Assembly: GCA_051294905.1 (NCBI GenBank)
Contig: CM119373.1
Coordinates: 3,288,001-3,352,000 of the forward strand
Origin: Botryllus schlosseri
Taxonomy: Eukaryota
Reading direction: 5' to 3'
Length of the DNA: 64,000 nt
In this document: positions 2,968-58,082 of the stretch, piece after piece
How the letters are laid out: each line of letters starts with the position of its first letter
How positions within the stretch are numbered: the first letter of the stretch is position 1
The notes under the pieces: generated by a model
The model's input: the letters and a program-made list of their open reading frames with translations, nothing else
Told to the model about the DNA's origin: nothing
The model's database searches: none
Position numbers and translations under genes: made by a program

Positions 2968-5900
2968 GTGGACGCATCTGACGAGGGAAAGTCGATAACA
3001 TACAGGGAATTGCTGGAGAATTCCAGAAAATGCGCGGCCTATTTACAATGTCTTGGGATCAAAAAGGGAGACTACGTTTCGATTTTCTCAGCAAACAGTC
3101 TCGAGTTCGCCTATCTGACGATCGGAGTAATTGGGTCTGGAGCTGTGCTGACTCCTTGCAAAGATTTTTACCAAGAAAGTAATACGAGCGAATAGCTGTG
3201 TTGAGATAATGATTAATGTTAACATTATTTAAAGACGAAATCCTTTATGAATTCGGCATTACCAGGCCAAGAGCGGTTTTTGTGGACGAGGACCGGCTTG
3301 CCAGATTGGATGCAGTGAAGAAGAAACTCCCATTTCTCGAGGTAATAATTTCATTTTTTCGGGCAAGTAAAATAAAACATTACAAACAGCCAGGCTATAA
3401 CTAGTAAGCAACAAGGTTATAATGACTCGAGTCGTGACTCGACTTGAGTCCGATTCGAGTCGCTATTTTTGGTGACTCAACTCGACTTGAGTTTATCTGT
3501 GCACTGAATCGACTTTTACTCGAGTAACGACACTGTCGGCATTTCATCTATCAGTACTGGTACTTGAAAATGCAACCAGAAACTGTTAAAAGTGAGGAAA
3601 ATCAGTATAATATGAATGTGAAATATTCGATATCACTAAACATGACTATAACTTCGTTCCATGCATATGGGTCCAATTTTATTGCTATAGTTAACTCATT
3701 AAGGCTCAGTAACGGCCCAAAAACGCCACTGAGTCGATTTGCACCATGTGATATGGTGGAAATATAGGGAAATCTCCGAGATTTCATTTCCAGTGTGAAT
3801 TTCAATATATAATTGAATAGTTTATTCATATTGAAATGAACCCGAATATTATCGGCTGACACTCGTCAGGGGTAATCGTCAGCAACTAGTAGAGAATTGG
3901 AAAGAACATTGTAGGCCTATATCAACAATCGTATCACAAAATATGACGTCACCAGCATGAAAGAGAGGGTGTTCAATGTACTATTTTTCGGTGATACACG
4001 AACTCCTTTTGTTGACTTGTTGATTGTATACTGAAGTTCTGTACCTCCAAGAAGCTCTTCCAGTGTGAATTGTAAATCATGTTTGCAACGCTTTCCTGCA
4101 AAACATTCGACTTTCACACCCACGAGACTTGGTGCAAATGAGATAAATACGCAATAGTTACAATGCGATATGCCTGATATCATTGTGGGTTATGATAAGT
4201 GTGTCATCCGCATGAACAGAATCCAAATCACTGCATGGTTGTAGTCCCATTTCAATCGGTGTACTATATATATAACTCATTGAATCAACTGATATGGCTG
4301 AAAAGACAGAATAAGGCACTTGGTAGTAGGCCTACCACTGACTTGATCCATATGGACCTAAGCCTATTTAGTTGGCCACCTTTTTAGTTAGTGAATATCC
4401 TCCTCATCCGGATGATGCGTGGAATGTGTTATATTAATAAATCATTACATTGTTTCAGCATATTTTTGTAATTGGAAAAAGTAAAAGATACGTAACTGTC
4501 GATGAAATACTGGCAAAAGCGAAACCAGGTAAACATATTTCTTTGGGTTAAGTGGAGGTGTCAGATTCGGTTGTGTTATGGCAAGGTCTAAGGTTAAGGT
4601 TAGCGTGAGTCATTTTAAATGACTGACATATTTATACCATTCGAAGTAGTCCTGTAATGATTGTTTGACCCATTCGATTCGTTCAAGTACACCTCAAACG
4701 AGACTTTTAGTTCCGTGAAGTGATTGGGCGTGCTATATGACATGTTGAAAACGTCTGGGGCAAGTGTATGGTTTCAAACCTTTACATTCACATTTACATT
4801 CAGATTGTTGTTGTTTGCGGTATTCATGGTGTTTGTCGACTACTATGGTCATTTACACCAGGCCAATTTCTTCTTTTTTCATTCTCTAGCTGCCGACGTG
4901 TAGCACGGCCCACTCCTAGGCTTTTATAAGACACCGCTTACACCGTTAAGATGGCGTGTAGGAGCCTATATAGATAAACCTTCAACACTTAGGTAGGAAT
5001 TCTGGAGTCGACATCGGTCGGACTCCAGAATTCCTACCTAAGTGTTGAAGGTTTATCTATATAGGCTCCTACACGCCATCTTAACGGTGTAAGCGGTGTC
5101 TTGGTGTTGCAGCGGTGGGCTGTACAACTACGCTATATGTCGCCACAACATTGTCACAAAGTACAATGAAATGGATATGGTCGGTAAAACACCAAGTTAT
5201 CTCTAATTTAATGTAGAGTTGACATCATATTCTTATTGGTCCACACAAAAGGCATGCGTATTTGAGCTTCCCACATCATTAATACTGTTAATACTGTTTT
5301 AACGTCCTAATGAGTGATACTGAAATATTCTACCATACCATGCCCTGCACTCATGCGCACTCGATTTGTTCCTACCATATCTTCCAGTCTTGCAAGTAGT
5401 TACTTCTATACTTGCACTTGAGTAGAAATTTATGACTTTACCTCTATTTGCTTATCACTGATGACTACAACTGCGTCCATCCTCTGGCCGGTAGCACTCG
5501 ACTCGGAAACGAATCGGTCAAGTTTTCGATTTTACCCACTCTAACCACAAATGTCTGACAGAAACATTAAAGGAAGTCGATATTGACCCACAAAACGACC
5601 TCGTCATCGCACCGTATTCCAGCGGAACAACAGGACCCCCTAAATGCGCGTTGATTGCTCACGCAGCTCTGCTTTTAACGATCCAGTCCCAATTGTAAGT
5701 CGGAATGTTACAAAACTTTTTCGACTCGTTATTTTGCGGTTTGAATGCGTTTCGCTCGTCAGTTACACAGGCGGAGGAGGCACGTTCTACGCCGACCGGG
5801 CCATGTATCACGCGGGGGGATTTCAAAGCATTTTAGGCAATATACTCATCGGAAGAAGAATAATCATGGAGAAGGAGTTTGTGTTACAGAAATTGTTCGA

Positions 5901-8900
5901 AGACATTGAGAAATATCGAGTGAGTTACAATTTCACGGCTGCTGTCAAGTGGAATATTCCCCATATGAAGAGTACCGCTGGTCGGCTACAATACAATAGT
6001 ATGTTTTGTAATTTGCATTACTGTGGTTATATTATATTGTATATCAGCCTACTCATGGTTATAAGCACCATGAATATCAGATCGGCTAGCAATACATTTG
6101 CAGCCGACCAGTGTTCTAAGTTTTTTGACTTCGAAAGCTGTTGAGTAAAATTGGAAGCAGTCGCGGAACAACAGTCTAAGTTAGTGGTGCAAGTTTTCAT
6201 ATAGAATCACCCGTTATCTGTAAATCTGGTCAATTTGTACGCTTCCCTGTCAGATAACTGTGGCGACCTGCTTCCCGCCGACGGTAATTGAAATGATCAA
6301 TGCGAAAGACGCGGAAGATTACGATCTGTCGTCCTTGAAAATGATCATCTGCGCTGGAGCTCCAATCGCATCCGCTGCTATAGAACAAATGAGGAAGAGA
6401 TACCGTGTCACTTTTGTTGCGGGTAATAGTATTTGCGTATGATGCAATTTTCTATTTAGTAGAAGACAGGTGTCAAATAGGATACTTGACTATATAGCTG
6501 TATTAAAATGTATGAAAATTAATCACAGGAATAACTCTATCAACTAACTCGAACACAACGTAATAATACATGTATGACCTCTCTTCTAATACTTTTTTTT
6601 TATAAATGGTTCGTGGTGCAGGCTTGTACTGATACAGTTATGTTGACTTGGGCCAGGCCATCATTATCAGTGCGCGAGCCGCATGTTTTGAGAACTTTGC
6701 TGTAAAGCAGTGCTTAGCAACATTTTTCAGCTTACGACCCATCCTGTAACGCAAGTTTCATTGTGCGACCTACTATGAGATGTATGGTCGAACTAATGAG
6801 AACGTAATTCGACGCACCATGATTCGTTTGAGTAACAAGTCCAACTAGATGCCTAAAAGTGAACTTCCACGACAATTCGAGCAAACGAATGTATCGAGTT
6901 TAGACAAGACTATGCGAGATAGAAGATTGCAAACGAGAAAGCGCGCAATCAAGCAGTAATTCGTCTTTTACGTCGAACTCAAAGGGGTTCCGAGTATAGC
7001 TTGCGTCGCCGGAACTGTTAGCTGCTTATAATCGGGCATGATTGCATTTTCAAATTAACGCTCTCAAAGCCTTGTTTGTTTGTTTGTTTGTGGTATTCAT
7101 GGTGTTTGTCGACGACTATGGTCAATGGTCATTTACACCAGACCGATATTCTTCATTCTTATTCCGTAACTGCCGACTTGTAGCGCGGCACACTTTTAGG
7201 CTTTTTTAAAGACACCGATTACGCGCATGAGATGGCGAGGATAGATTCCATTTATTAAAGAAAAAATTTACGCTCCGCGCAACTAGGCCCGAAATTCACA
7301 CCGATTGTTCATCCCCTAATGTCAGCAATTTGGGCTCGTCCGAGAAACGATCGCCAAATACAAGCTATAGCAACTGGAAGCTTCCATAGTATGTGTGTGG
7401 GTGCGTCTAAGAATCGTATGTATAAAAGGGTAGTGATAAGATTGCCCATGGAAGGATGTACGGTTCTGCGAGGTGTTCCCACGTGGGAGCTTCCTAAATT
7501 CGTAAATAATTTCTAGCTACTTGGCGCTACGACCTTGCGTGTGAGCGATCTTTTGAATGGCGACAGCTTTTTCCGCCAGTCATGAAGTAACAGCAATAAA
7601 TGTTGAAGATGTATAATTAAGCGCCCCCTGAAAGTTTGATGACACCACTACTATTATCTCTACCGGTAAAACTGATAATGAAAACGTAGTTTCAATATAC
7701 AAGTGACAAAATATGATGAACCGATTTCATTAATTCACCATAAAAGATTTCGGGCTTTGCGCGAAGATGTCGACGTCCTAGTTTTCAACAAGCATAATAT
7801 TATCACATCTCTTTAATATTATTATTAATTGTGAAAATGAGACAGAGCATGTTACGCAACTAAGATGGAGGGCAGTACTCGCACGCATATTGCGCCTGCA
7901 GGGTTGTTGCATCCGAACCACTCCGAAAGGTGAGGTCGTTGGGAAAGGCCCCGGAATAAGTGGAAGCCACCTCTCTAAGCGGCTCTGTGGCCTGCGTGTA
8001 GTCGATCCATAATAATAAGGAGTTCTTGGAACCGCAACGTATTGGGATGACTGGAGAGGCCACACCGCTGCATGTCTGATTTCCGGTTGATGCGGTTCGG
8101 TGCTACAGACGAACCTGAAAGCGACAAACGCGACTGCTGTCATGATTATAAAACTTGCCACAGACCTCATGCCGAACGCCAAGTATACGCTCTCAGCTTG
8201 GCGATTTCAAACCTGACTCTATGTCAAACTATTCCGCGCTGTCGAAGAGCCAGCAGCTTTCAAGTGAGTTTGAAATCATCGTGCTGCAGATACTAATCAG
8301 GAACACAACAGTCGCTTAACGACTTTTTTTCTGACGGAATGTCTGTAAATGTCTTGCGGGCATATCGTTTAAAATACCGGACAATATTTGGGGACGATTA
8401 TACTCTCGAATATCAGTGACTGCTGCAGTCGTTATCTGCCAGAGAGATCACTAACGTCTCCACGCGTATCTGCAAACATGAACATATCGGGACGATAGAT
8501 AACCAACAGTAAATGTGAACGCCGGCGGCGAATATTCCAAAGCTTGTTTTAACTCGACGACCGTATTGTACATATATGAATCCGTTCGCACGACGCATTA
8601 TATAGTCAATTTAGGATGATAGGCCAAAACGCGTGACCGAAGACGTGGAAATAGATAAACCTCTAACACTTAGGAAGGAATTCTGGAGTCAACCTCGGTC
8701 GGACTCGAACCCGCAATCCATTGGTGTTGCAACTGTGGATTATACCACTACGCTATTAATAAGTCTCGTATTCTGATGCTGATAAGAGATGACAGACAGA
8801 CTATTCCAGCAGAAGATTTATTAGTATATAATCCCAATTACATCTGTACTAAGAAACAATGCGAGAAAGCAAGATGACTGCACTACTGTGAGCGCGAGCG

Positions 8901-11900
8901 GCAACGTACATGAGCCACGGATATCTAGAGATAGATATCCCTGATATAAGCGGTCTTCACAACTCACGTTGTGAGGCATAACTTGTGAATTCACGTAGCT
9001 TGTAGCGAGAATCAGGATATTACAAATATCTCACTACTTCTCAAAGCCTTCGGAGAAAGGAATGTATTCCGATTTTAAGGCATGCACAAAATCACACTGT
9101 CCAACTTCACGCACCAATCAAATTGATTGTCATAAAATTAATTATTATGAACACGGGAACGTGGATTACGGCACTTATGGGCGCAAAAATAATTTAGAGG
9201 AGAGCGGGTATTTAGCCGTCTAATCGTGACAAGATAAAGTGTTTAGCATATCTGGCGAATTAACTATAGATAACTGAAATTTTAGAACACTCATCGCGAC
9301 CCACATCAAATAGCTTGGCGACTCACCGGTTGGGAAGCACTGCTGTAGAGTATGGTTACCATAATTTGGAAATCTGAAAAGAGGACTCTTTTACAAAATT
9401 TTCAGACTTGCAATACCGGAGGAAAATCCTGAAACATGGGTGAATTTTTCCCACTTCGTGAGCGGTTGACTAAAAAATAGGTCAACTTACCGGTTCAAAC
9501 CCCGAATTACAGTTTTTCATTCACATTATCAGTTGGTTGACTAAAAAAAAGGTCAGCTTTCCGGCTCAGCTCCCGAAATAGCCGCCAGACCGTTGCTTCA
9601 GTGCTGATTTACTGTATCTCAGTCGAATTTTGCCGTATATTTAACCAAAGTTCTCAATAAATCGGACATTTGAGCACTTACGAAAAAGTCAAAAAAGCAT
9701 GGTTATAAATCATATGTGCCTACGTCGGCCTATGCTTTCCGGCGTCTTTGCGTGCGTAAGTTCTTTCGTACTTCATTTGTACTTATTGTAATTTGTCAAG
9801 CATCTTTTGGATTTAATGTTGCGTTTGATTTATACCGCAGTATAATTCAGAGGTTATTTTGTTTCCGTATACCTTCTTCAGAGTGTGAATACACGCACAC
9901 TCTTTGACAATGTATATTGCTAATGTCACAATGGCATGCAGTACAGAGACACGTATATAGTGCGGGCCTGATATGATGTATTCAGGTTACGCGATGACTG
10001 AGGCCGGTTTCATATCTTACGGACCGATTACAGAAGCAGATCCAATGGGAGCCGCTGGTAAAATAGAATGTGGCGTAGAAGTGAAGGTAACTTTGTTTGA
10101 ATCTGAATCGTAAGCGTTGTAGTCTAGTAATTTACGTTAATACGCAGATATCTGACGTGGAAACTGGAAAAGAATGCGAACACGGTGCTACCGGGGAGAT
10201 TCGCGTTCGCAGTCCTCAGGTAAGACCAAAATTTGAACGAAATAATAGCAGGTGAATTTGTTCAGACTGTGAAGCGTATTGGATATCATATTTGCACCCA
10301 GTGTAACTCATAGGCTTGTTTGACTGTCTTTTCTGCTAGATAGAATATATGGTATTCGCTATACGGCAGTGGTCAGGAACCTTTTTCACCCGAAGAGCCA
10401 AATTGACCCTATATTTCCCATTTCAACTCCCAAAGAGCCATACATGTCAATCAACTATTACGTCACAATCGATAAATCGTGACGTCATGGTAGCGCAAAT
10501 TCGAAATACCTACGTGAGATTCGTCATTTGCACCGTATTTTCTCTGTAAAAACTCGTACTTATCATGCTAGTTGACTTATATGAGTAATGAGTATACGAA
10601 ACTTGATTTACATGGATATTTTGCAAGTTATATATTTTAAATTACATTGCACTTGGACGGATATGATATTTTTCGAAGCTTAAGACAATTAACATTTAGA
10701 TTTCCAACAGACGTAGACACCAGTAAAAGTATTAATCTACTTTTTACACGCTTTTTACAGGCAATGCGTCTTTTGGTGGTGTTACATGGTATTCCTGATG
10801 GCTTTGTAGTCTGCTTGTTGATAATTGTTGAGGTTAAGCTTCATACAAAATTTGAGACTTCCGTCAGTGATACGAGATCGTAGGCTCGTCTTGATGCTAT
10901 TCGTAAATGCGAGGCCCCATGATGACATACGCAGGTGGATCCAAACATGCTCACCATAACAGCAGTATACATAGGCTACCCACTGTAATGCGTGATGCGT
11001 CCGTGAGGTGGGGTTAGGGGAGGCACGTAGGGCAGTGCATCCCCAGTCTACTAGATTTTGAACATTTTTACTACCAAAGTCACGCAACTTGCTAATTTAT
11101 TGTTCGAAAATAAAGCGTGAGAGGGGACGTGAGGCACGTCCGGACCATACCTTACCTGTGATAGCGCAATTAATCGTAAATATCATAGAATTTATATTAA
11201 CTGATAATAATCGAATGTAATTGTCGCACTGATTCCGATTCGACTTTACAATTCTCAAAATATTTTGCGGTAACATAACGTTGAGCCACACGCCTACATT
11301 TTAACAACGACTACAAAGCTACGTTATCAATCAAGAACGTGGATAGCTATGCCGTTGTTTGTAATTTGAATTTTTAATTGTGAACTTCCACGGCAGTTCA
11401 TATCTCGCCGAAGATCAGGAAGACAATATGTATTTGAAAACTGCGTTGTGCAATCCAAGATTTCATGGCAGGTACATCGAATTCAGGAATGGTATTGGTC
11501 GCCAGCGCGACATCAACTTGAATTTTAGAATTTTGAAAAGGGGATCTGTGCCCCTAACTCTGAATACGCCACTGAATTAACCTTTCAAATATATGTTTAA
11601 ACTGTCACAGGAATAATGATACAGGTCGTGATGAAGATTTAATAGCAAGTTGCTGCAATATTGATAAATTAGGCAAAAATAAAATAAAAAATTCGCAAAG
11701 AGCCATATCTTATGCCCAAAAGAGCCATATATGGCTCGCGAGCCATAGGTTCCCGACTACTGCTATACGGGATCATGAACGGACAGAGGCGGTCAAATTA
11801 TAGTGAGCGTTGCTACTCAAGTACAGAGGTTAAGTACCGTCGTAAATGTCTACTCAATTACAAAGTGAAATAGTCATTTCCAAGACATGCCATGACTATA

Positions 11901-14900
11901 CTTAAAGTGTAAGCATAGAAAATGACTGTCGTAAAAGTACTCAAGAAAGTAGGCCTATAGATGCGGTTGACGCGTCGCAGTCGCAGTCGCATAGCCTAGG
12001 ATATGTATGAATTACCCAAACAGGTCTTCATCAATTTCGCAAACGTTATATATTACCACACTTGGTTTACACTCTTCTCCTCACACAAGGTCACGAAAGG
12101 GTATTTGAAAAATGCCGAGGCAACTGCTACATTATATGATGAAGATGGATGGCTGAGGACTGGGGATATGGGATGGATCGACCAAAAAGGAAATCTCTGC
12201 ATTACTGCTCGAATAAAGGAAGTTATCAAGTACAAGACACTGCAGGTTAACCTCATTATACCTTCTATATACCATTGGTTACGGACAGGACCGAAACAGC
12301 ACTTCGTCAGCTCCCCTCCCAAAAAAAATTGGTCTTGGGGCCCCCATAGTGTGATAAACCAAACTTCGGGGGCTTCGCGCCCCAGACCCCCTTCAGCCTG
12401 TACGTTTTTACCGCTACTTATTAACGAGTTTTGTTGTACTGTGTAGTGGGACAGTTTATGACGCTAAACCACGGCGTGCGCGAAAAATTTCCATTATTCA
12501 TGATTGAATCGGTCAATATGATCGGGAATTGCATATATATATATATATATATTGCTATCAATTACTTATCCTCTCTCTGCACTCGTAATCAGATTTACCG
12601 GTAGAACTGAGTGAGGTGTCTTGGAAACTGTAGGGCGGGTCCGAAGGTATAATGACTTCGTTACATGGTGATTTTCGTGACCCCTGTCGGTTATGTCAAA
12701 AGATATTGAAAATCGCCCAAACGTACTAAACTAAAAGACGCACGCGATTTCAAATTGGTATTGCTCTAGCGGCAAATAATTTGTCTCTGCGGGATTGCAT
12801 TTGTCTTGTGAGGTTCAGATTGTCAGGACAGGAAAATTTGGCGCCAGACATTTAAGCGCCTACGGACAATTAAACACCAATGTGTGTATATATCGAAGTA
12901 AGCATACGGGCAGTCCTTTTCGCACAAGGTTTTCTCGCTGCTGATAGTTCTGGAACACTTCTCGGAATCGCATGTTACTGCTTCCCAATAAGAGTTAATC
13001 TATCAACGAGAATTACCGTCTCGATACTATTGTGTCACTTTGGAAGTCTTGAAACCTCGAGTGGTCGTATCGTAGCAATGGCAGCATACTAAGCATGTGG
13101 TGCAAAGCTACGCGCGTTAGTGGAAATGACATTTCTGCCCACAACATTGTCGCAAAGGCAATGCCATAGGTACGGTGTAAAATATACAGAATTACCTTGA
13201 ACGGAACTTAGAACTGGCATTTTTTTCTTTTGTGGTCGCATAGAAGGTACATATTTAAACTTCCATCACTCCTACTCTTATGCTGTCTTGATGAACGGTG
13301 GTCTATATTGCACAGCCCCAGTTATTTATTTTCCGCACTTGATATTGCAACTTCGCATTCGCAGTTAAGGAATCAATGACGAGTTCGCAATCTAACCTCT
13401 TTTCTCGTCCCGACAGATATCTCCGGCCGAGTTGGAGTCGGTAATCATTCAACATCCGGGAGTCTCAGACGTGGGTGTTGTCGGGATACCAGACGCTATG
13501 TGCGGAGAAATACCGATAGCATTCGTGGTGCCCGCCGACGGAACTCTTTCGATTCAGGACGTGCACGATATTGTCAATAGTAAGGCTTGAGATTCTCTAT
13601 GTCAGGGGTCAGGAACCTTTTCTTGTCTAAAGAGTGTGATCAGACTAGATGACCCTCACGGTCTTATCGATCATTCCTATCTAATACCGAATACTGTGCA
13701 TGCATATTTTCTGTACCACCACAACTGCCGTGTGTTATGTATTTTGGTTTGATGAAAAATAAAGACTCTCTCGCTCTCTCATAATGGCCCAATATTTTCC
13801 TTGTGAACTCCCAAAGAGCCATACATGTCAATCAACTGTTACGTCACAATTGAAATTCCGTGACGTCATCGTAGCACTAATTCGACCTCACTACATTGAA
13901 TTCGTCGCGTGTGCGCCACATTTTCTCTGTAAAAACTCGTAGGCCTACTAATCATGCTGGTTGCCTTATTTAGGCATGCGAAACTTGAGTTACGGGAACG
14001 CAGGTTTGTCCTTATGCTCCTTAAAATGGGAGAACTCATGATCACGTGCGCAGGTGGGGCTAAACATGGTCACTACAGCAGTATATATGTGTCTACCCAC
14101 CAGTGTTGGGATCAAGTCACTACCTTCGAGTCACGAGTCATTTCGAGTCATTGCCCATTTCGACTCGAGTCAAGTCAAGTCAATCGATTTTCAAAGGTGA
14201 CTCAAGTCAAGTCAAGTCACTCGATTTTCGGAGGTGACTCGAGTCAAGTCGAGTCAAGTCACAATTCAAGTCAAGTTGCCTTTTCGAAGTATGGGGCATG
14301 ATAACGTCATTGCATTTTGCTAGCTGTCTGAAATACAGATTGAGTGGTCATTGATTATGAAAATATGAACGAATATAGAAGTAAGTATACACGCAAGAAG
14401 GCGCTGTATCTCTCACGTATACGTAGAACTGCTAAACCACAGTTTATAGTTACCAGCCAAAATTGAGAATAGATACGAATTGATAGGATGCAATACATTA
14501 CCCATTTACAAATCGATATGATGCAATTCGAGCCTGCGCCAATGGTTGAGGACTATGTGAACTATACCCGAATTCAATTTAAATAAAACAAGAGGTTTGA
14601 TTAAGGTAAAAACAGAGATTAATTACTTTACTATACTAGTTTACGACGACGTAAGCTGTAAGCTTCGATCACTTCGTTTGTGGTCAGTTTATTTGTAAGG
14701 GAACAATGGGGGCTCAGTAAAACGCACGATCATTAAATGATTGGTTGCTCTCACGGTTACACCAGCGTGTCACGAACAATCCGAGCATATGCAATATTCA
14801 GTGATTTTTATCGACACCGACAACTTGATGACTTGAAATTGACTCGTGAATTTTGCTCCGAGTCACGAGTCAATCCATATTTCTGATGGGCCGAGTCAAG

Positions 14901-17900
14901 TCAAGTCATTTTAGAAAAGTGACTCGAGTCAAGTCAAGTCATTCGAAAAAGGTGACTCGAGTCGGACTCGAGTCAAGTCGTGACTCGAGTCATCCCAGCA
15001 CTGCTACACACTCTAAGCTGTGATACATCAGTGACGTCGGGTCAGGGTAGATATAAGTAAAGATGAGTGAACGAAAATTGTGAAACATTCAATTACTATT
15101 GGTATTTTCTGTCTGTGTTCATGAATGACAAGATTTCGAACATTTTTCTCCCAAAATTACTCAATTTGGACATTTATTGTTCGAAAATATAGCGCGAAAC
15201 GTGAGTTGAGGCACTGACGGGCCAAGCCTCACCATTGGTAACGCAATTCATCGTAAATAGCTTACAATGTATTATAACTGATCTTAATCGAATGTAACTG
15301 TAACGATTCCGAAAATCTAAATACTGGTCGACTTCTCAATTCTCAGACTATTCGGTGGTAACATATAACGTTGCGCTACGCGCCTACATTTTATCGCGGG
15401 TACTAACGGAGCTACTTACCAATCGCGAACGTGGATAGCTATGACGTTGTCTGTAATTTGAGTTTATAATAGTGAATGTAACGTCCACGGCAGTGTTGGG
15501 ATCAAGTCACTACCTTCGAGTCACGAGTCATCTCGAGTCATCGCACATTTTGACTCGAGTCAAGTCAAGTGAATCGATTTTCAAAGGTGACTCGAGTCAA
15601 GTCAAGTCAGTCGTTTTTTGGAGGTGACTCGAGTCAAGTCAAGTCAAGTCAAGTCACGAGTCAAGTCACAATTCAAGTCAAATTGAATTTTCGAAGTATG
15701 AGTGATCATTCAAATTCATTATATTTTACTAGCTGTGTTAAAGAGATCAATTTGTCATTGATCTTGAATCAAATAACGAATATAAAGTTAAATATTCATG
15801 CAAAAATGCGTTGTATCGCTCACGCACACGTAAAACTGCTAATAAAATAAGAAAGTAACTCTATAGCTACATCAGGGGTGTCAAACATACGATCCGCCAA
15901 ATGATTTCATTCGGTCCGCGAAAACATTCTGAGTATAGGTTGAAAAATTTTATCCAACACATTTCTCGAATTTGTAGTAAGAAATACTAATAACAAATAG
16001 TCCTTCAATATAGCAAATTTCGAGTATGTTCATTGTTCATAGACCACATTATAACAACCCGACAGCGGAGTTGTGATTGTAGTTATCGTCAGGAGAAAAT
16101 CGTTGACATTAACACCCAATTCCGAGAATGCGAAAAAGTGCATATATTGAGTTAAGAGTTGGTAATATTTTGGAATCATTTGACTGGTGCGGCCCGCGAG
16201 TGATCTGTATATTTGAATTCGACCCGCGGCGTCAGTTGAGTTTGACAACTCTGAGCTACATGCTACATTCTCTTATTATCAGCCAAAATATAGGATCGAA
16301 TACGAAGCCTCGAGAAGCTGAACGAAATTGATATCGTACAATACACTAGCCATCTATACACATCCGTGAGGATATAAATGCATAAAATATATTTGTTAGA
16401 TTTAAATCATACAAGAGGGTTGGTAAAGGTGAGCGACGTGCAATGTAAGGACAGAGCCGTCCAATAACCAGCGATACTTTGCTGTTAAATTAATCTGCTA
16501 CTACGACAACGCAAGCTGTGATCATTTCGTATGGGTCAGTGTATTTGTGATGTAACAATGTAGTATTAGTGAAACGTACAATCAGTGAATGACTGGTTGC
16601 TCTCAAAAGTTACAACGGCGTGTCGTGAATAATCCGAAAATGCACAAAATACATTGATTTAGTCGATACCGTTTACTTGATGACTCGAAATTGACTCGTA
16701 AATTTTGCTCCGAGTCACGAGTCAATCCACATTTTTGAAGCGCCGAGTCAAGTCAAGTCAAGTCATTTTTGCAAAGTGACTCGAGTCAAGTCAAGTCATT
16801 CGAAAAAGTTGACTCGAGTCTGACTCGAGTCAAGTCATGACTCGAGTCATCCCAACACTGGTCCACGGCAGTTCATTTCGCGCCGTAGACCAGGAAGACA
16901 GTGCTATTTGAAATCTGCATCGTCATATCGTGATAAGTCAACGTATCGTACAATCCAAGATTTCGAGTCGGGTACATCGAATTCGCGAGTGATATTGGTC
17001 GTCGGCGCGACAGCAACTTAAATTCGAGGATTTTGAAGAGTGGTCCGAGCCCCTAAACCTGGAGGCAGCATTGTCTTTACCTCTGTAAAGAGGATGATTA
17101 TTCTGGTTGTGATGAAAATTTACCAACAAGTTGCTGCAATATTGATCAATTCCGTACAAAGATAAATATTTGGCAAAAAGCCATGTCTTCTACCCAAAAG
17201 AGTCATATATGACTCGCGAGCTATAGGTTCCCGACCACTGCTCAATGTGCTTTGTAGTCAGAGGTGGTAGGAAGACATTACCAGAGGTGGTCAAAGTAGT
17301 CAAGAAAGCTACTCAAGTAGAAGTAGAAGTAGCGACGAAATAATCTACTCAAGTACGAGTAGAAGTACTTCTTCCATAAGCAACCTAAAACTACTTGAAG
17401 TAGAAGTAGAAATTACTAACTTTAAAAGTACTCAAGTAAGTAAGTAGTTGTGAAAACGATCCTAATTCGTTCGCATGGATTGTAAAAAGGTGCAAATTGA
17501 GCTATGCGAAAGGTGACCAGCTTGATTCATATTGATGCATACCAGCAGGTATCCAGTTTACGATAGCATAAGCATTCGTCCACATCATAGGATGAAAATG
17601 ATAGTATTGTTATGGAAATGCGATACTTATCCTCTGTTTTCTTGAACAGTACGTTTTAGAAAATAACATGGTATGGCGCCATCCCCCATATTATAAGGCC
17701 CGTAGTTTAGTCGAAGAACAATACGGAGAAGTTGTATAGGATACGGTGTGAACACTTTGCGCGATTAGTAAACATTGATAAAAATATGGGGGACCGTAAA
17801 AAAGCTGTATTGTGTAGCTTTATTTCCGGAAATTAAAGGCATTACTACACTTGCTTTTATACTTCAACATGTATTTTATCCAGACAAAAGAACTGATAAT

Positions 17901-19037
17901 TATAACTCAAAGTATATGATACTGGGAATTGAAAATAAAACAATACTACTTCTAAAAGCGAAACACGTTTTTCATGCCTTCAGTCCAGAAAGTTTCAAAG
18001 GCGGCATGCTAAAACAGCACTAAAACTAACAAAAATGTCAGAGTTCACTTTTCCAGGTTATGACGTGCCATGGACATGCTAGATTACGATATGGCAAGTA
18101 AATGATAGATTGCGAAAAATCAGTTTCAAACGATATGATGAGCCATATGTACTGTGATGAATTATTTCATATGGGCGAAGGGCGACAATGTGGTGTGAAC
18201 GCAGGGATATCTAGTTCTAGATATCCCTGTGTGAACGGAATCACGCCAACCCGCTACCTAAATTATATTCATCGATACTTTCGTGAAATCATACTGGTAA
18301 CGCCGCATCCACTGCGCGCGAAGCGCGACGAAAATTCTGGGCTTTACTTAACTTTTATGAAAATTAAATGTGGATGCTCCATGAAAACAGCCCCGAAATT
18401 CCTCAGGCTATATTCCTGATTGGAAGATTGAACTACTTCTACTTGACAAACTGAAAATAGCGAAAAGTAAGTAAGTAGATCACAAAATATTACGAAGTAG
18501 AAGTAGAAGTAGCGAAAATCAGCTCTACTTGAGTAAGTACCAGAAGTAGAGGAAAACTACTTGAGTACTTCGAAAAAGTAGAAGTACTTCGTTACTGACC
18601 ACCTCTGGACATTACTCTTAAAATTTCGTAGGGTGAACTGTCTAAATCGCCAGTTCCACCTCCGTCATCAAGGGGAATCTTGCAATTTAGGAAGCCTGGA
18701 CCGGCCTGACCCCAATATATATCTTCAAACTACAAAGGCCTACTTCAGTAGGCTATTTCCCGAAACTCGTGTTTCCGGCTTCAACTTAGAGTCGTTCTGA
18801 CATGCCATGATAATCGCTATTCCTAGATGCAGGTCTACTTGAGTCTAAATTCAGTGCTTTGACCAATTCGGTCGGTAGTTAGTATCTTCACGCTTGTAAT
18901 TTGTAATTTAAGGAAATTTGGCCGATTTCAAGCAACTGCGGGGCGGAGTGCGATTCGTGAGCTCGATCCCGAAGTCGCCGACTGGGAAAATAGAGAGAAT
19001 CAAGCTGAAGAAAATGTCGGCAGTTGTACCGCCATAG
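2968..19037 (+). CDS. Firefly-luciferase/4-coumarate-CoA-ligase-like AMP-dependent acyl-CoA synthetase (ANL superfamily), 5'-partial. Exons 2968-3178, 3235-3341, 4459-4528, 5562-5694, 5763-5919, 6254-6422, 9986-10086, 10148-10219, 12090-12245, 13417-13579, 18913-19037
   Basis: All introns are GT-AG and phases join into one 487-aa frame. Motifs in order: SITYREL, P-loop YSSGTTGPPK, DLSSL, AGAP, GYAMTE, GEIRVRSPQVTKGY, GWLRTGDMG, RIKEVIKYK, SPAELE, GEIPIAFVV, LRGGVRFV, PKSPTGKI. Stop TAG at 19035-19037; AATAAA near 19163. The first exon (about 50 aa expected) was not identified. Confidence 0.93.
3802..4057 (-). mobile_element. Hammerhead-bearing Penelope-like/retrozyme-like repeat with inverted tail (core mutated GAAA to GAUA)
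   Basis: Flanked by 14-bp direct repeat TTCCAGTGTGAATT (3788-3801, 4058-4071). Shares body with copies near 31.9, 41.4, 42.5, 50.5 and 51.7 kb. Confidence 0.7.
4805..5137 (-). mobile_element. tRNA-derived SINE with an internal inverted duplication
   Basis: A-box-like TAGCGTAGTTG head and short (AAC)n tail. Homologous to the split copy at 7074-9038. B-box replaced by a palindrome arm. Confidence 0.7.
6708..9342. mobile_element. hAT-like non-autonomous element hosting nested insertions
   Basis: Termini CAGTGCTT...AAGCACTG; TSD CTGTAAAG / CTGTAGAG (7 of 8). Confidence 0.75.
7074..9038 (-). mobile_element. tRNA-derived SINE interrupted by two insertions
   Basis: 12-bp TSD TCTCAAAGCCTT (7062-7073, 9039-9050). 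(AAAC)n tail at about 7074-7090. A-box TAGCGTAGTGG and B-box GGTTCGAGTCC at about 8700-8755. Confidence 0.78.
10367..11762. mobile_element. hAT (Charlie-like) non-autonomous element
   Basis: Termini CAGTGGTCAGGAACC...GGTTCCCGACTACTG; perfect 8-bp TSD CTATACGG. Confidence 0.88.
14101..15003. mobile_element. hAT MITE family A (GACTCGAGTC/CAAGT subterminal repeats), copy 1
   Basis: TIR CAGTGTTGGGAT...ATCCCAGCACTG; TSD CTACCCAC / CTACACAC. Confidence 0.88.
15491..16860. mobile_element. hAT MITE family A, copy 2 (contains 15873-16253)
   Basis: Same TIR; perfect TSD GTCCACGG; empty site visible in the paralog near 11387. Confidence 0.9.
15873..16253. mobile_element. Charlie-like hAT MITE
   Basis: CAGGGGTGTCAAAC...GTTTGACAACTCTG; perfect TSD AGCTACAT. 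Confidence 0.88.
17282..18607. mobile_element. hAT MITE family B (AGTAGA/TACTCAAGTA subterminal repeats)
   Basis: TIR CAGAGGTGGTCA...TGACCACCTCTG; perfect TSD GACATTAC. Related fragments near 11785, 45480-45570 and 52073. Confidence 0.9.
18202..18229. mobile_element. 28-bp micro-MITE
   Basis: CAGGGATATCTAG-TT-CTAGATATCCCTG with perfect TSD TGTGAACG; siblings at 8916-8943 and 56446-56479. Confidence 0.8.
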
Positions 19038-26668: not shown

Positions 26669-27129
26669 ACGGTAAGACTTAATAAATTAATAATGTATTC
26701 AAAGTCGTGATGTAAATTTTGGGGCGTGGCCAAAACAAAGATTCGCAACCAAAACTCTTTCGGGAAAACAATCTATATTGACCCAAACTTGGGTCAAATC
26801 TATTCAACTCCGTTTCAAAGTACCGCGCGCCCGCACCGCACTGCTCGTATAAAGCTACATTGCATGAAAAGACACGAAATTATTGTTTAAAAAGAAACGT
26901 AAGGCACAAAAAAACGCGCGGCGCCAATCGCGTCGCGATGTCACGCCAAATAATTGACGATGTATATAGTCTTCACCTTGCCAATAACCGCATGTAACTC
27001 GGTGTTAGTTGCCTGAATGCCTCGACAGGCGTTCGCAAGCGAACTTCATGGTGTTTTACTTCAAGAGGGCGCGTATGTTTGACCAATATCGGCCACAAGT
27101 CAGAAGCCGTGCCTCGTTTGATTTTGTCT

Positions 27130-30100
27130 TTAGCTGGGAGAAACTTTTGCCAAAAACGGGCCGTCTTCGCTTTTCATTTTCATATCCAGCGTGCCGCCTG
27201 TGAAAACGATGATGTTGTGAAGACTATTGTGGTGGTTTTGTTCTCAATTGCAGACCGTAAGAGGTTCAACACCAGGGTTGTAATGACTCGAGTCACTAAC
27301 ACAATGACTCGGACTCGACCCTCTATATATCAAACAGATTTCATAATATTACCTGAAGAATTTCGAGACAAGTTTGCAAAGTTGCTCATCACCGCGATGG
27401 GAGTGTCCCCCGTGGCCTGTGCCACGCGGTGCTCGACCAGGTAGAACATATACTCGTCGTAGAGCAGCCTGATGAGGTGAAAGCTCCCGAAGCTGGCCGC
27501 CGAACGCAGGGTCAGGTCCCTGATCACCATCGAGCTGAAAACGCAGACAAAGAGATTGTCGGTGGCTGAACCGGATGGTAAAGTAGCACATAATGAAGTT
27601 TATAGGTCCGGTTACTTATATTCGAATGAAATATAATTCAAGTTCATATAAGGTGACTTTCATTTGAGTGATAACTAATTAGATTAGGCTAGGACGGTGT
27701 TATTTGAGTGGATGTTATTGAAATTGGGCTGGGTCACTTTCGTTTGAGAGACATTACCAACGATGGTCATGAGTCAAAATTAGGTGGGTCAATATTGTAG
27801 AGTTAGGTCAAAAAATGTCAAAATTGTTTACAAAGTTAAAACTTTTTTGCGACCTGCATTTCGTTTGTATCGTTGATTTTGCGCTGTCGGTGAACTTATC
27901 ATTTGACATTCCACAGCTTGTAGCTTACTTTACAGGCCTACCGTTGTAGACGGGCCTTTGTCTACTCATTGTGAATCAAAAACATTCAAATGAAACAAAT
28001 AGGTTGACATGGTGTTATGCTCAACGTATTGCAATATCCTAACTGAAGCAAGACTGCGTGGGCATTGGTTCTTATATCAAGAAGCGCATCATGAAAAATT
28101 GTGACGTAGGCACCATTGCCAGAATGAAGCAACACGGTTTGTCATCAGCAGTGTACGCACAACTTCAGTGTTGTCAGCCAACAACTGCTGCCGTTGAACG
28201 TTCTTTCTCCATTCTTGGTAAGCTACTTTGTAAGGACAGACACTTTCTACCCGAGAATGTGGAAAAGTATCTTTCGTTGAACTACAACAACTTTTAATTA
28301 CTTCTACCATAACGTGTATTATAACTACTGGAATTCTTCGTAGGGCCAGATTTCGTAAAGACAAAGTTTTTTCGTGTAAAAATGTGTCAGCATTTGCGCC
28401 GAAAAAGTTTTTTCTTTGGGCCAAACTACTTCGTAAGGACAGACAGTTCCAACCAGAAATGAAGATAAGTAGTACAATTCTAACGTAACGTGGGGAAACA
28501 CCTAATTCGAATACCTTAGGTCAAATTTGGTCAAAATCAAGATTTTTAAGGTCAAAAATTGATTTTTGAGGTCAAAATCTTCCGTTTTTTTAGGTAAAAA
28601 AAATCGCCCTAGTCTGTGAATGTGATAGTTATCAGTATTAAACGCACGGCTCAAAGATCAGACAATAGTCCCGTTCTAGCCAAGAGTGACAAATAATTCA
28701 AACTACCAACCGTCAACGACCAACTACTTGATTTTTGAGCAGTCCTAGTTTTATTTCTAGTTGCGGATTCTGAAAATACAGTAGTTGGTACAAATCTGGC
28801 AAGAACGATTCTACACATAAATCAACAAAATCTCAAAACCCTCCCCACCTGTAGAAGCACCACTTCAACAGGAACTGCCTCGCGGCTTTAGTGATGTCTG
28901 TCGATATCTCGTGCGGCTTGAGTATCTCGATCACGACAGAGTCCAGCCACTCCGCCCACTGCTCCAGGCTCCTCTGCTCGGACAGGGCCTCCTTGAACTC
29001 GGCCTCCAGACGCTTCACCACGGCACCGTCGCACTGGCACACCCAAGAGGCTTGCTCCTGCGAAATCACAATTTCAATTTGGGAAAATTGTTTGAGAAGT
29101 GATTTGTGTTGTAGGCGGAGATCACCAACTCCGTAAATAAAGGATTGAAAAGTATACAATTAATTAGAAATTGATATTGAAAAAAACCTCGGTATTTTTA
29201 GCTTATACTCGTCAGGGTTGATCGTCAGGAGTAGAGAATTCGAAGTCACATTGTATTGTATTAATTGATTGATAGAACCAAAGAGTCTCTTCAAATATTG
29301 AAAGTATATTTTGGGTCGTTAAAACATCAATGATCGGCCAGAAGACGTTTACTTTTACCCAAAGACACCGTCTCTGGCCAGGGTTGTAATGACTCGAGCT
29401 CGAGTCATACCTCGAGTCGCGATTTTTTAGTGACTCGATTTGACTCAAGTCATTTTTACAAATTTGAAAATGACTCGACTAGAATCATTCATGTTATTAC
29501 TCGAGTCAAAGCGGTCTGCTCATCCTAAGACCTAACAAGCTTACCTGGACATTGGAGAAGTCCACCCTGTTCAGATCGGCCAACATCTGTGTAATCTGAT
29601 TGCCGTTCTGCAACACGGCCCTGGCAGCCTGCGCCAGATGGTTCAGAGATGTGTACCTGCGGAGGGTTTGCGAGAACGCAGACACCGCCGTGATCTGTCG
29701 ACAAAACGTGACGTTACGATGTAGCAATCACACAAAAATGACACATTTTTCACATCAATCACTCATATTTTTTTAAGGTAAATAAAGTCAAAATATTCCA
29801 ATCGTACTAGTCATAACGTAACGATGGGAATTGATACCCTGCGTCTGAATTAACCGCAGAATTGTCCACATTAACAGGAGCTTTTCTCATGCGATGTTCA
29901 CCGCCCTAGCATTTTGGCTCCATAAAACACCACAATTCCAACTTACCTTGATTTGAACCATACACTCGGGCATGGATCCTCCGTTCAACGCAGAGTTCAA
30001 AGTGTTGTCGAGACCTTTGGCAAAGTTCCTAATGGCTTGCGTCAAGGCGCCTGCGGAATGAAATAAGTTACGACACCACATTGCGCAAACGTTCGTACAG

Positions 30101-48227: not shown

Positions 48228-50802
48228 ACCGCTGTCAATCGTGATTTTGCAATGCAACCTGATTTCAGGTTGCCAAATACTGAAAGGCTATGGGTGCCAT
48301 AGGCTATCTTTCGTAAAGCACTGCCAAACTGAGTGAGACAGTGCGAAATTATTGTTAATTATTGTTATCTGAATATCCCAGTGATAAAGAAGAATGAGTC
48401 CAGGCCATATTTGTACAAACTAGTTATTTGACGATCAATTAACTACTGTATTTTCGAGTAGTTCTAGTTCTAGTTGCATATTTTGAAAAGCGAGCAGTTC
48501 TAGTTTTATTTTTAGCTGCGCATTTAAAAAATTAAGTATCCTAACAACTAGCATCGTTTGGCGTGAATCGTGATACTGATGTTCAGTTGCGTGATGTTCT
48601 TGCAGCCATTGCTAGCTCAGAGTCATCACAACAAATATTGGCGTAGAGGGGGGTGGGTTTTAGGGGTCGAAACACACCCATTTCAAGCTTACACTCATCG
48701 TCGTACGGTAGCCGATCAAATTATTATAGAATAATATGAATGAGTGGCTTCAGAATTGCATCTAGCTAGTTGTGTTTTAGGTGTGTGTAACAAAAACTGA
48801 GCATTTCTAGTTCTAATTGCGCATTTTGTAAACCCAGCAGTCTGGCAATTCAATTATGTCTAGAATCTAGGCTAATAGAAAAGAGTGGCAGGCGGCTGGT
48901 AGGAATTGAAGTTTCTCTCAGCCTAGGGTGGTTTTGTTAAAGCAAACACAGCCATGGATGTTGCCAGGATGAGCTCAATGGGACATAGGCTACAGTAATT
49001 ATCCGAAGAATCTCCATTACGGTAGCTTACTGTCCTAGACGCACTCGTTAATCATATAAAACGTACTGAAAAAACAACTTCTCATCGCGACGATAATACA
49101 ATGCCGATAGTGCCAAAACAGTGTAAACGCGCCATACTTCAAATTACGGTGGCAAATATCTTCAAAAAGCGTCAAAACCGGAAAATTTGACACGCGAACA
49201 CGCTAATTGACGACGCTTTCAAACTGCGCTTATGACATCACCGTACACGGAAATCGGCGAAAGTGATGCGACAATCGCAAAGTCGCTATTCCGTCAAACG
49301 CTACGGCGAAGCCTACTCCGTTCAGAAACGATTAATTAAACTCAAGGCGCGGGCTTCAGCGGATAGGCGCCGTTTAAAACCCTACTTATCACGGCGAAAT
49401 AGTCAAGGACGCACGCTGCAGAGCTCTTGAAATTTTAGTATATAGCTCTAAGAGCGTCGTAAAGATAACCTTGCTACTAAGCCTGTGCGACTACGGTACC
49501 GCGTAGCGTACATACGACAGGCTTGTGCAAACTACTGGATTTTCCAAATGCGCTACTAGAACTAGAACTAGACTAGAATTACTCTCTTTTCGAAACTAGC
49601 AATTACAACTAGAAGTCTAGCTTCGTGGCCTAGTTGGTTAGGCGCTAAAGTTCCATTAGGGCTAGAACTAACGGCATTAAAATATACGCAACTAAACAGA
49701 ATTTTGTCGGAACCGGGTCGATAATTCACACGACTATTTGCGTCTATTAGTACAACAAAATCAACGGCGATTCATACAGATAGAATTACCACAATGCGGG
49801 ATAAACTATACTCCTGAGCGAGCGATGGCTGCGAGAACATTACACAACAGAACACCGGTATCGCGATTCACGTAATTCCACAACCAAGTTATTTTTAAAT
49901 GCGCAACTAGAACTGGAACTACTCGAAAAACAGTAGTTCGTCGGTAATTCAACGTAAACTAACTATACTGGTAGTCCGTACTGGCCTGTTGCCGACTGCT
50001 ACTATCTTTTCCGCTAACTTGTGAAACTCAAATAAACTATCCGGCGCGGTTACAACCAAGCCCTGATGACAGACAGATGCACCACCTTTCCGTGACACGC
50101 GGCGGCCGATTTTTAAAACGCCAATTCGTTGGTTTAAAGATCGACACAAAAGATTTCTTACGCCGGCGGGTCCCTGCTTGCTGCGGACGTTGTGGCACGG
50201 AGTTTAAACCGACATAAAGCAAACAAAAGACGATCGACTCGTCTCTCGTTATTATGTACCAGCCTCGGACACAATGAATAGGTGTCAGGTCTTTCCCGGT
50301 CGAAAGTAGCTGGTAAGTGATTTTCAGTCGCTCAAAGACTGCAAATTATTGACATTATGTTCGAGATTTGTACATATCTAATCGAAACGGCTGAAATGTT
50401 ATAAAATGCGCGATTGTCCGAGTAGAACATCCGCGAAAATGCGGTTTATACAACACGACACATTTTGAAGAGCTTTTCGGAGGTAGAGCACTTCAATATA
50501 CAATTGATTATACTATTCATATTGAAATAAACGCGAATATTTTCGGCTCACACTCGTACTCACACTCGGGTAATCGCCAGCAACTGGTAGAGAATTGGAA
50601 AGAATATTGTATATCAACAATCGTACAATAGACTACGAATCACGGCCCAACAAAAACAAAACTGCAACACGATATCGAAGTCATGATCGGGTATAGGCAC
50701 AGGCATACTTTGCGCAAAATCAACGTAAAAGTGCCACTCGACCAGTACTGTAATATCACGGTTTGAGGTGTACATTGTACAATAAAGAAATACAGAATCC
50801 CG

Positions 50803-50981
50803 GTCGCTAAGCAACGGATCATCAGTTGACATGACATTTGTTCCGTTTCCTAGCGACGCGCGCGCTGTGAAAAGCTTTATATTGACACAAAAAGCGATTC
50901 GGCCGAGATGAAATATAACCGCCGGCGCTCAAGGGAGGCAGACACGGGGTCTCCAAATATACTTTACGTTGCTATGGCGAC
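50803..50981. promoter_or_regulatory. X-box (RFX-binding site) cluster inside an RFX intron
   Basis: GTCGCTAAGCAAC 50803-50815, GTTTCCTAGCGAC 50845-50857 and GTTGCTATGGCGAC 50968-50981 approximate the GTNRCC-N0-3-RGYAAC palindrome, in a CpG-rich patch. Confidence 0.65.
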
Positions 50982-51643
50982 CGGCACCGCTTTTCAGCAC
51001 ACAGTTTTTATGAAGCACGGACCTATTTTATTGCCTCGTAATCTGTCGTCATGGAGATTCTGTGATTGCGTGGGAATCAGACTAGTACCAACTACTGGAA
51101 TCTCAAAATGTGCAACTAAAATTAGAACTGACGACCTTTAAAAAACCGCAATTAACCATCGAAAACACAACTGATTAATAACTAATACGAAGTGTGAATG
51201 AGATGAGCAGGATCGGCGTTTTAAAGGATGGGGTTTAACTATAACTAGAACTAGAATACTCATTTTTTTTACATCCGCAACTAGAACTAAAACTAAAACT
51301 ACTTACTTTTCAAAATCCCCAACTGTAACTAGAATTACTCATTTTTCAAAATCCACAGCTAGAACTATAACTAGAGCTACTCATTTTATTAAATTCGCAA
51401 CTAGAACTAGAACTATAAGAACTACTCAATTTTTTAGACTCACAACTAGAACTAGAACTACTCACTTATTAAAATTCGCAACTAGAACTAGAACTACTTC
51501 GTAAATATTGCTTGGAAAATACTGCAAGATCATCACACAACATAACGCCAGTATCATGATGCACGTCAAACAACGACACATGTTGGCCAGTTGATAGCCT
51601 ATGCCACTATTTCTTTTCGAAATTCGCAAACAGAACTAGAAGC

Positions 51644-51894
51644 GCTTCTTGGAGGTACAGAACTTCAATATTCAATTAAATAGTATATTCATATTGAAAT
51701 GAACCCGAATATTTTCGGCTGACACTCGTCAGGGGTAATCGTCAGCAACTAGTAGAGAATTGGAAAGAACATTGTATACGGTATCAACAATCGTATCACA
51801 AAATATGACGTCACCAGCATGAAATTTCGAATGAGACTCTCTGTGTCAGCCGAAAATATTCGGGTTCATTTCAATATGAATATACTATTTAATT
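51644..51894 (-). mobile_element. Hammerhead repeat insertion with inverted partial copy
   Basis: Minus copy plus an inverted fragment from 51843. Flanked by AGAACTAGAAGC at 51632-51643 and 51895-51906, though the host sequence is itself AGAACT-rich. Confidence 0.7.
51703..51736 (-). ncRNA. Minimal type I hammerhead ribozyme, intact core
   Basis: Minus strand reads ACCC-CUGACGA-GUGUCAGCC-GAAAAUAUUC-GGGU. Confidence 0.75.
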
Positions 51895-56053: not shown

Positions 56054-58082
56054 TTTTGTATGATAGCCAAAGACTGACCAATGGACAATCTCTCTCAGAG
56101 TCTAAATCGTAAATCGCTGGCCCTAGTTTTATACGCTGATTAATATACGCGTGTATAGAGCTGATTGTATTGCGACAGACGATAATTGATCGTGATGGCC
56201 GTGCGAAGAAGGGTGAGAAATGGGTTAGTTTTAAGGGGCACGCGCCAACGAAAGCGAAGGCTAAGTCTGCCGGCGGCGCGTGTCAAAATTGCTGGTAATT
56301 TACGAGAACGGCACCTGGCTGCGATTGAACTGTAGCAAAAGTGGCGAATGTAAACATAGTAGTGATGGTGGTTGCGCGTTAGTGGCATGTTTGTAAATAC
56401 GACTTCTAGAAATTTCGGTTGATCGTATGGCAGCATATGTAACATCTGGGATATCTAGAACTAGAACTAGATATCCCTCATGTAAAATGTAGTACACGGG
56501 TAGCCAACATGCGGCCGTAGAAGGGAATTTGTGCGGCCGTGACACGCAATTCAATTAGTATGTGTCGGCGGCCGTCGACAGGCAAAGTGAATTTACGAAG
56601 TGACTCCCGAATTTTTGAGAGATTTTAATTAATCTTGAAATTTTCTGCGCGCACGGCGCGATTCAATGCTACACCTCGTTTTAATATAGTAGCGTGTTTT
56701 GCAATATGATCCCCACAGTACAGATGCGAACATGAGAGGAAAATAAGCCCCCCCTCGGGGAATCGTGCGCTTGTCACGAAAGAAATTTGTTTCTGGTACG
56801 TTTGGGCGATTCCGATCTATTTCCACTACACGGACAATCCTAATTGGAGGTCAAGAAATAACAGCACGCCACAAAGTGACTACCGGTAACAACAATTGGC
56901 CCACCCGAAGATGCATTTATAACGTGCCTTAAATTTTCGGAAACACTGCTTCCGGCAACTCCACCGGTGAATCTGATCACATGGACTGAGAAGTGGGAGA
57001 TATTTGGTAGTAGTATTATGTGAACCTACTAATCACGAAATTAACATGGACAGTTTACCGTGGGTATTTGGTGTCCAGTTAGTGCATTGCGACTATGTCC
57101 TGGAATGCAACCGTAGGCTACACAAGCAATCGGAATGCGGCCGTGAATATCAAAAAGTTTGGTCACCTCTCATGCATAGTACAAAGCTACGCGCGTTAGT
57201 GGAAATGCCATTCCTGCGAATTCGTGGAAAAGATATATTGGCCAAAAAAATATCAAATCATGTTTGAAGTGGTGTAAAGCAGCAGGCAATACCGGTATTT
57301 TGTTTGCGGTCGCAAAACCGGTACATATTCGAACTCTCCGCGTCATACACGAATCCTCGACTCAATTCGAAGCTTAATATTCTATTCACAATCGTATCAC
57401 TCACGAACTCGATTTTGCTCAATCCTACACACTAACGCGCCCCACCTGCTACAAGCCAGACCCCAAAAGCGATTGTTATTGTACGAATCTCAAACACCGC
57501 AGCACATCAAGCAAATTATCACGCCCGCGCGTACGCAAAACACGACGAAACCGCGTAGCGAATCGCAACATTTACTCCACGATTGTCGCTAAAATGTCAA
57601 CAATCTACAGATGACAATACGCAAAACAGCGCGCGCGCGCTGATAAGACACTAAGCGAGATCAAAGGAGCCGCGTTCTACATCGAGTACGCCCGCTCAGG
57701 ATATGCACATCTCGTGAAAGGAATCTTTACTATTACCCGCCAGAATACCAGAACGAGTCATTTCCGACAGATGTAATGTAATGTATGCGCTCCCTGCCAC
57801 TAAGAGGTAATTTATCAACGAGAATTATAGTTTCGACACCATTTTCCACATTGGTAGGATATAAATTTCGATTGGTTTTAGTCACGACCAAATGTAAAAT
57901 TTCAATCCAAAGTCGTGGTTTATAATATCAGTGATATTTTCAGAAAAATTGATGACCAGATAGAGGTATCGATCTTACAAAACACCCCACCTCTGATCAC
58001 AAGTATGGAAACCATCTTCAAAAAAGCGATTAGACATCACTACGCCGTCACGACGGAATAAAACAGGCCACATTCGACCCAC

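Follow-up and report, generated by a model that had tools for sequence, protein, structure and literature searches.

Short palindromic units in a probable ascidian genome are insertion-derived and most likely scars of a putative P-like transposon

Genes and Mobile Elements in the Window

The window, that is, the whole 64-kb stretch of DNA analyzed here (64,000 bp), carries genes with animal relatives and a large number of mobile-element remnants. Its RFX exons are closest to those of ascidians (Styela clava at 66%, followed by Phallusia and Ciona at 57–59%), and its left part is spanned by a gene for an AMP-binding enzyme, with Pfam AMP-binding frames at 2968–3192 and 6224–6439. A remnant of a hAT transposase dimerisation domain (28043–28294, E = 2e-4) is located between the RFX exons on the opposite strand. 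Neither a THAP nor a P-transposase Pfam domain was detected in the 131 window frames of at least 72 aa, and a search of the window for tRNA and known RNA (Rfam) returned no matches. On the minus strand, an open frame of 145 codons (55667–56101) with a high content of Gly, Tyr, Pro, and Ser, about 350 bp from copy 3 of the unit described below, has no Pfam match and is possibly a first exon.

The window is dense in non-autonomous elements with CAG...CTG ends and 8-bp TSDs, with ten such elements in total. Between 13603 and 17240, hAT-type MITEs are nested: one element (15873–16253) lies within another (15491–16860), and this nest, together with 14101–15003, is enclosed by matching ends at 13603 and 17240 (TSD 7/8). 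A family of long MITEs with CTAG repeats is present at 48473–48816 and 49518–51950, and its subterminal tandem motif is identical to the central 10-mer of the unit (CTAGAACTAG). There are also a 177-bp hairpin element (4927–5103, with 82-bp arms and an 11-bp loop), of which a partial second copy occurs at 8651–8756, about 160 bp to the left of copy 2 of the unit, and a 20-bp hairpin at 26778–26797, whose perfect 9-bp arms stand between 7-bp near-repeats (6/7) and which is within the chance range of simulated windows (0–3 per window).

Copy 1 of the unit lies inside an old copy of a non-autonomous hAT-type family, referred to here as the host MITE (Table 1). Contigs from four of the ten listed public runs (X1, X7, X6, and X5) were aligned to the region around this element alone (window positions 17250–18650), and the family is high-copy in all four runs. 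Loose contig ends numbered 422, 357, 72, and 521 at position 17282 and 625, 593, 121, and 900 at position 18607 in X1, X7, X6, and X5, respectively. The family has many internally deleted relatives, the joints of which skip about 1.2 kb, and the same variants of it recur in a marine metagenome and in runs whose labels name two organisms.

Three Short Units and Their Insertion Sites

The initial annotation had described three short palindromic units at unrelated sites in the window. All three are present (Table 1), and the sites are indeed unrelated, as the neighborhoods fail to align beyond the unit itself. The 13-mer end motif of the units has six matches in the window at up to two mismatches, compared with a mean of 0.82 in shuffled sequences, and none of 100 shuffles reached six. 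With a 17-base form of the motif, the same six matches were recovered at up to three mismatches (shuffle mean 0.06). All six ends pair into the three units, each shorter than 50 bp, so that solo ends amount to 0/6 in the window, and a scan for paired arms detected all three units but not a single one in ten simulated windows. A chance origin of the units is ruled out by the shuffles and the simulated windows. The density of three units per 64 kb corresponds to 10–137 per Mb (Poisson 95%).

Table 1. Positions and properties of the units, their flanks, and the host MITE (window coordinates; the last three lines are sites in metagenome contigs).
Feature	Position	Strand	Length	Description
Host MITE	17282..18607	.	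1,326 bp	12-bp perfect ends; own 8-bp TSD GACATTAC
Copy 1	18202..18229	.	28 bp	Near-palindrome; insertion demonstrated by empty site
Copy 1 TSD, left	18194..18201	+	8 bp	TGTGAACG; single at empty site
Copy 1 TSD, right	18230..18237	+	8 bp	Second TGTGAACG
Copy 2	8916..8943	.	28 bp	Decayed unit; each 13-nt arm has one mismatch, the centre two more
Copy 2 left flank	8908..8915	+	8 bp	ACATGAGC; matches right flank 6/8
Copy 2 right flank	8944..8951	+	8 bp	ATATAAGC
Copy 3	56446..56479	.	34 bp	Decayed unit; 28-bp form with one extra central 6-nt repeat
Copy 3 left duplication	56437..56445	+	9 bp	ATGTAACAT; 8/9 identical to right copy
Copy 3 right duplication	56480..56488	+	9 bp	ATGTAAAAT
L010			28 bp	One mismatch; flanks 4/8
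L002/L004/L011 (one site)			28 bp	Two mismatches; flanks 1/8; further arm ends 72 bp beyond
L006			47 bp	Flanks 4/8

Copy 1 is a genuine insertion with a TSD on both sides. Its flanks are identical at 8/8 positions (p about 2e-5, for one site), and the corresponding empty site is found in paralogues of the host MITE, in which a joint at 18192–18229 skips exactly 36 bp, equal to the 28-bp unit and one 8-bp repeat. This joint occurs in all four runs, with 13 (X1), 12 (X7), 4 (X6), and 4 (X5) contigs listed, and the consensus of the loose ends of host-MITE relatives likewise carries the TSD 8-mer only once. The empty site is read from other copies of the host MITE (paralogues). The proposed insertion with a TSD by an element of the hAT or P type is supported by the empty site together with the flanks. 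Of the 8-bp TSDs that had been claimed for the units, those of copies 1 (8/8) and 2 (6/8, p about 0.005) stand, whereas copy 3 is flanked by a 9-bp repeat, with 8/9 matches at this spacing as opposed to 2/8 when 8 bp are compared. The assessment of copies 2 and 3 as insertions is based on their flanks. Copy 2 is probably situated in an intron of the AMP-binding-enzyme gene, with the downstream exons judged by eye.

The age of copy 1 can be set against that of its host. One spanning contig differs from the host copy in the window at 16/107 and 22/165 bases (about 14%). Over the 44 bases of the unit with its TSD, no change was observed (p = 0.001–0.04 for a divergence of 14–7%). With a divergence of about 14% among host relatives and none in copy 1, the insertion is far younger than the host MITE copy, and for this reason a host-MITE subfamily as the carrier of the unit is not supported. 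The TSD of copy 1 has neither T2 nor A7, at least one of which is present in 10/10 TSDs of the hAT-type MITEs in the window, which is a weak indication, from one site, in favor of the P-like reading discussed below.

Copies outside the Window

A 19-mer scan of metagenome contigs yielded 13 loci, five of which, representing three distinct sites, carry both arms (Table 1). None of these three outside sites has a clear TSD (an agreement of at least 4/8 has p = 0.13). The flanks of the outside units are non-coding and animal-like and have nothing else notable in common with the window, and these units are therefore probably from other species. Among 81 frames of L006, L010, and L011, there were two weak Pfam matches below the cut-off, so that their hosts are described as no more than animal-like. 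Within positions 3001–3100 of L011, the next 72 bp after the 28-bp unit contain degenerate fragments of the motif as well as another right-hand arm, and neither span is bounded by a TSD; this arrangement possibly reflects repeated insertion at one spot.

The other eight metagenome loci have a single arm and were treated as chance matches. Four of them (L001, L003, L012, and L005) are located in gene-dense, bacterial-looking DNA, and the remainder are L007 and the one site shared by L008, L009, and L013. Viral contigs gave no match to the 19-mer and no unit; the 17-mer had two single-arm matches in or beside long ORFs, and a 10+10 pattern retrieved six unrelated hairpins with a flank agreement of 1–3/8. 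No whole unit was found in the prokaryote genomes, where four single-arm matches were obtained.

The occurrence of the same 28-mer in animal-like contigs without a clear TSD (L010 and L011) could be taken to mean that the unit is not transposon-derived in the usual sense, but, for example, a palindrome conserved for protein binding or an insert from recurrent templated repair. Such an origin is highly improbable in our judgment: at copy 1, exactly 28 + 8 bp were added to a junk MITE, direct-repeat flanks accompany three of the three window copies, and copies 2 and 3 decay along with their flanks.

Anatomy and Length Forms of the Unit

The unit had been described as two TIRs around a short spacer, but it is in fact lopsided, with a 17-nt tip on one side and only 13 nt on the other. 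Read on the minus strand, copy 1 consists of a 17-nt tip (18229–18213) and a 13-nt tip with two bases in common. In all six sequenced units (three in the window and three outside), one arm fits the 17-nt tip at 14–17 of 17 positions, a match that is partly circular because the tip was derived from the units themselves. The opposite arm of the 28- and 34-bp copies fits for about 13 bases, after which there is a 2-base break. The arms of the 47-bp unit L006 are identical at 15 of their first 17 positions and at 2 of the 6 that follow, and they are separated by a 13-nt insert that repeats 6 nt of the adjoining arm; this arm boundary comes from a single decayed copy, which was retrieved with a pattern in which positions 18–19 were fixed. 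A single strand of the unit is predicted to fold as a strong hairpin (z = -7.7).

When the possible joins between two identical tips were enumerated, the 28-mer arose as 17 + 13 - 2 for tails of 17–19 nt and was absent for tails of 15–16 nt. A tail length of 17 is thus not unique, as 18–19 nt are equally good and a plain 15 + 13 join yields the same letters. The predicted 22-bp join, with a 6-nt overlap, was not found in the 64-kb window, and it is a form to which the scans of metagenome contigs were blind.

Forms of 28, 29, 34, 36, and 47 bp were observed, and 28 bp is modal (4/6 sequenced units). The four longer forms can also be read as tips of 17 nt or less with short, mostly locally copied inserts. 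The 34-mer of copy 3 is the 28-mer with the final six bases of the long tip doubled. The 36-bp variant has an 8-base duplication behind position 18205 (contigs listed: 3, 4, 5, and 0 in X1, X7, X6, and X5) and retains one intact 17-nt arm beside this local duplication, and the 29-bp variant has one extra base behind position 18214 (contigs listed: 5, 6, 1, and 0 in the same order). The depth per contig in X1 is 59 for the 29-bp form and 179 for the 36-bp form, compared with 7–22 for single listed contigs, and both forms look multi-copy, which is compatible with a scar and with a self-copying unit alike. The summed depth within the unit, which is not a copy number, reaches 7,978–10,681 in X1 and is hundreds of times the single-contig depth in all four runs; this fits the presence of many genomic copies.

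Origin of the Units

In the P system, one strand is cut by the transposase at the 3' tip and the other 17 bp further in, and insertion generates 8-bp TSDs (PMC7776569). In Rad51-mutant flies, excision of the Drosophila P element results in TSD-tip-tip-TSD junctions formed from 17-nt tails (PMC2895639). Among the 66 isolates in Table 1 of that study (n = 68 in the figure legend), 14 have a junction of 30 bp, the commonest length that keeps the tips, and 5 have one of 32 bp, templated inserts lengthen junctions up to 44 bp, and about 20 of the 66 are without most or all of the tips (PMC2895639). Scars that lost most or all of their tips would be invisible to the motif search used here.

The units share both their anatomy and their size range with P excision junctions and can therefore be read as such scars. 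On the strength of this comparison, the 28–34-bp units are probably dead-end excision scars of a putative P-like cut-and-paste transposon. A parent element would have inserted with the duplication of 8 (sometimes 9) target bases. Its transposase, which we infer to be of a P-like family, would then, like that of Drosophila P, nick one strand at each end at a depth of about 17 nt, so that both tips would remain on the chromosome as single-stranded tails. End joining of these tails, mostly over a 2-base overlap (17 + 13 - 2 = 28 bp), would produce the modal form, and short inserts copied from the tails would give rise to the forms of 29, 34, 36, and 47 bp. The resulting scar would retain the TSD and be incapable of further movement. 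The initial annotation had also suggested a product of abortive gap repair after the excision of a larger element; an excision remnant is the best fit to the data, and end joining of TIR tails is a likelier route to it than abortive gap repair.

A content of two tips of about 17 nt or less and templated filler describes all six sequenced units and the two contig variants. The TSDs and the CA...TG ends of the units fit the P superfamily, in which TSDs measure 7–9 bp, but they are not diagnostic since they are common to hAT elements. TSDs of both 8 and 9 bp have been described for one P-family element (PMC3698922, in excerpt), and P-like elements have been reported in the ascidian Ciona (PMC7776569, PMC3698922, the latter in excerpt). 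No long parent with the ends of the unit was found in the window or in the metagenome, viral, and prokaryote scans, the metagenome pattern having fixed positions 18–19, in which the parent is perhaps different. The literature searched contains no description of the 13-mer end motif or the unit; a matching TIR could be listed in Repbase, Dfam, supplements, or subscription papers, all of which were outside its scope.

Several observations count against a P-like scar. Neither a parent element nor a P transposase nor an allele with a long element was found, and the window does contain a hAT dimerisation remnant; the predicted 22-bp join was not seen in the window, the three outside sites have no clear TSD, and the multi-copy look of the 29- and 36-bp forms would also follow from a self-copying unit. 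Furthermore, CAG...CTG ends are common to every hAT-type MITE in the window, and the central 10-mer of the unit is the subterminal repeat of the MITE family at 48.4–52.0 kb. The last two points would suit an internal-deletion remnant of a hAT element, in which a tip-precise excision is followed by gap repair from the sister copy that halts almost at once at both ends and by a join at CTAG; in a variant of this scheme, a whole MITE collapses between repeated CTAG motifs. The unit ends start with CAG like those of all hAT-type MITEs in the window, the central CTAGAACTAG recurs as the tandem subterminal motif of the long family, arms of 19 nt give a join with a 4-nt overlap, and the first seven bases of the unit appear to resemble the maize Ac end. 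The 8-bp TSD is the norm for hAT elements (PMC4423477, in excerpt) and fits copies 1 and 2, with 9 bp at copy 3, and microhomology-mediated miniaturisation is known for MITEs (PMC3814204, in excerpt). We nevertheless regard a hAT remnant as unlikely. As described in an excerpt of PMC4763223, the donor site keeps no TIR after cutting by a hAT transposase, its flanks ending in hairpins, so that every base of the unit would have to be re-copied, with re-synthesis stopping within 13–19 bases at both ends. A broad range of mostly longer remnants would be expected from such a process, whereas all forms fall within 28–47 bp and solo ends are 0/6; moreover, the CTAG-repeat MITE family has terminal sequences unlike those of the unit.

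Another explanation takes the unit to be a non-autonomous element of 28 bp that is itself mobile; a tip-cutting transposase would move it in trans, possibly while it is extruded as a cruciform with the two ends presented by its two hairpins. The perfect state of copy 1 in a far older host is in accordance with this explanation, as are the modal length of 28 bp, which is also seen in unrelated contigs, the strong hairpin predicted for the single strand, and the multi-copy appearance of the 29- and 36-bp variants. To our knowledge, however, 28 bp of duplex DNA is unable to loop for the pairing of its own ends, and a P-type stagger of at least 14 nt would leave the excised 28-mer unpaired, with no duplex. 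The hAT elements Tol2, Tag1, and Ac require about 100–200 bp per end (PMC10368747, in excerpt). In addition, identical junctions recur independently in P excision (14/66), so that a modal length needs no mobility (PMC2895639, in excerpt). A mobile unit, the self-moving micro-MITE of the initial annotation, seems quite unlikely to us. As a speculation that would rescue mobility, the 28-bp palindrome could itself be the transposon, at a size well under the known limits, extruding as a cruciform whose hairpins serve a resident tip-cutting transposase as the two ends and re-annealing once strand transfer is complete to leave a clean insertion with an 8-bp TSD, with a spread in several animal lineages; we consider this very doubtful.

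Taken together, the unit is real, recurrent, and insertion-derived, and it is most likely the scar of a putative P-like transposon. If the units are P-type scars, the genome alone would hold the record of a chordate P-like transposase whose cut lies about as far inside its ends as that of the fly enzyme, and the units would constitute an extensive natural collection of end-joining products from the germline as well as a tally of past excisions. Repeat annotation should then avoid the MITE label for such units. Such scars would be a useful extension of known chemistry, whereas a self-mobile unit would break the accepted minimum size of cut-and-paste elements.

Comparison with Known Systems

Among hAT-type systems, the unit resembles Ds-like non-autonomous elements and MITEs in its CAG...CTG ends and 8-bp TSD. 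It differs from them in scale, as the ten hAT MITEs of the window are 275–3,638 bp long with subterminal arrays and hAT excision leaves no donor TIR. At 28–47 bp, the whole unit falls short of the subterminal binding arrays over about 100–200 bp at each end that hAT elements require (PMC10368747, in excerpt).

Two ends joined at a short common motif are also characteristic of microhomology MITEs, such as Gnome, Elf, and Goblin from Ozma and Made1 from Hsmar1 (PMC3814204, in excerpt). These are Tc1/mariner derivatives that, unlike the unit, have TA TSDs and were later amplified (PMC3814204, in excerpt). In the repleta group, the P element BuT5 has both 8- and 9-bp TSDs, as do copies 1 and 2 versus copy 3, although BuT5 is a mobile MITE of 1 kb (PMC3698922, in excerpt). 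The unit in the window is about a third as long as Made1, which measures about 80 bp.

The closest counterparts are the excision junctions of the Drosophila P element, which have the same order of TSD-tip-tip-TSD, an 8-bp TSD, a modal length of about 30 bp reached via a 2-nt overlap, and longer forms in which the inserts are copies of tail sequence (PMC2895639, PMC7776569, in excerpt). The tip sequence of the unit is unrelated to that of Drosophila P, and its modal join is lopsided (17 + 13). Unlike the fly junctions, the scars in the window would be natural ones, fixed or segregating in a probable ascidian.
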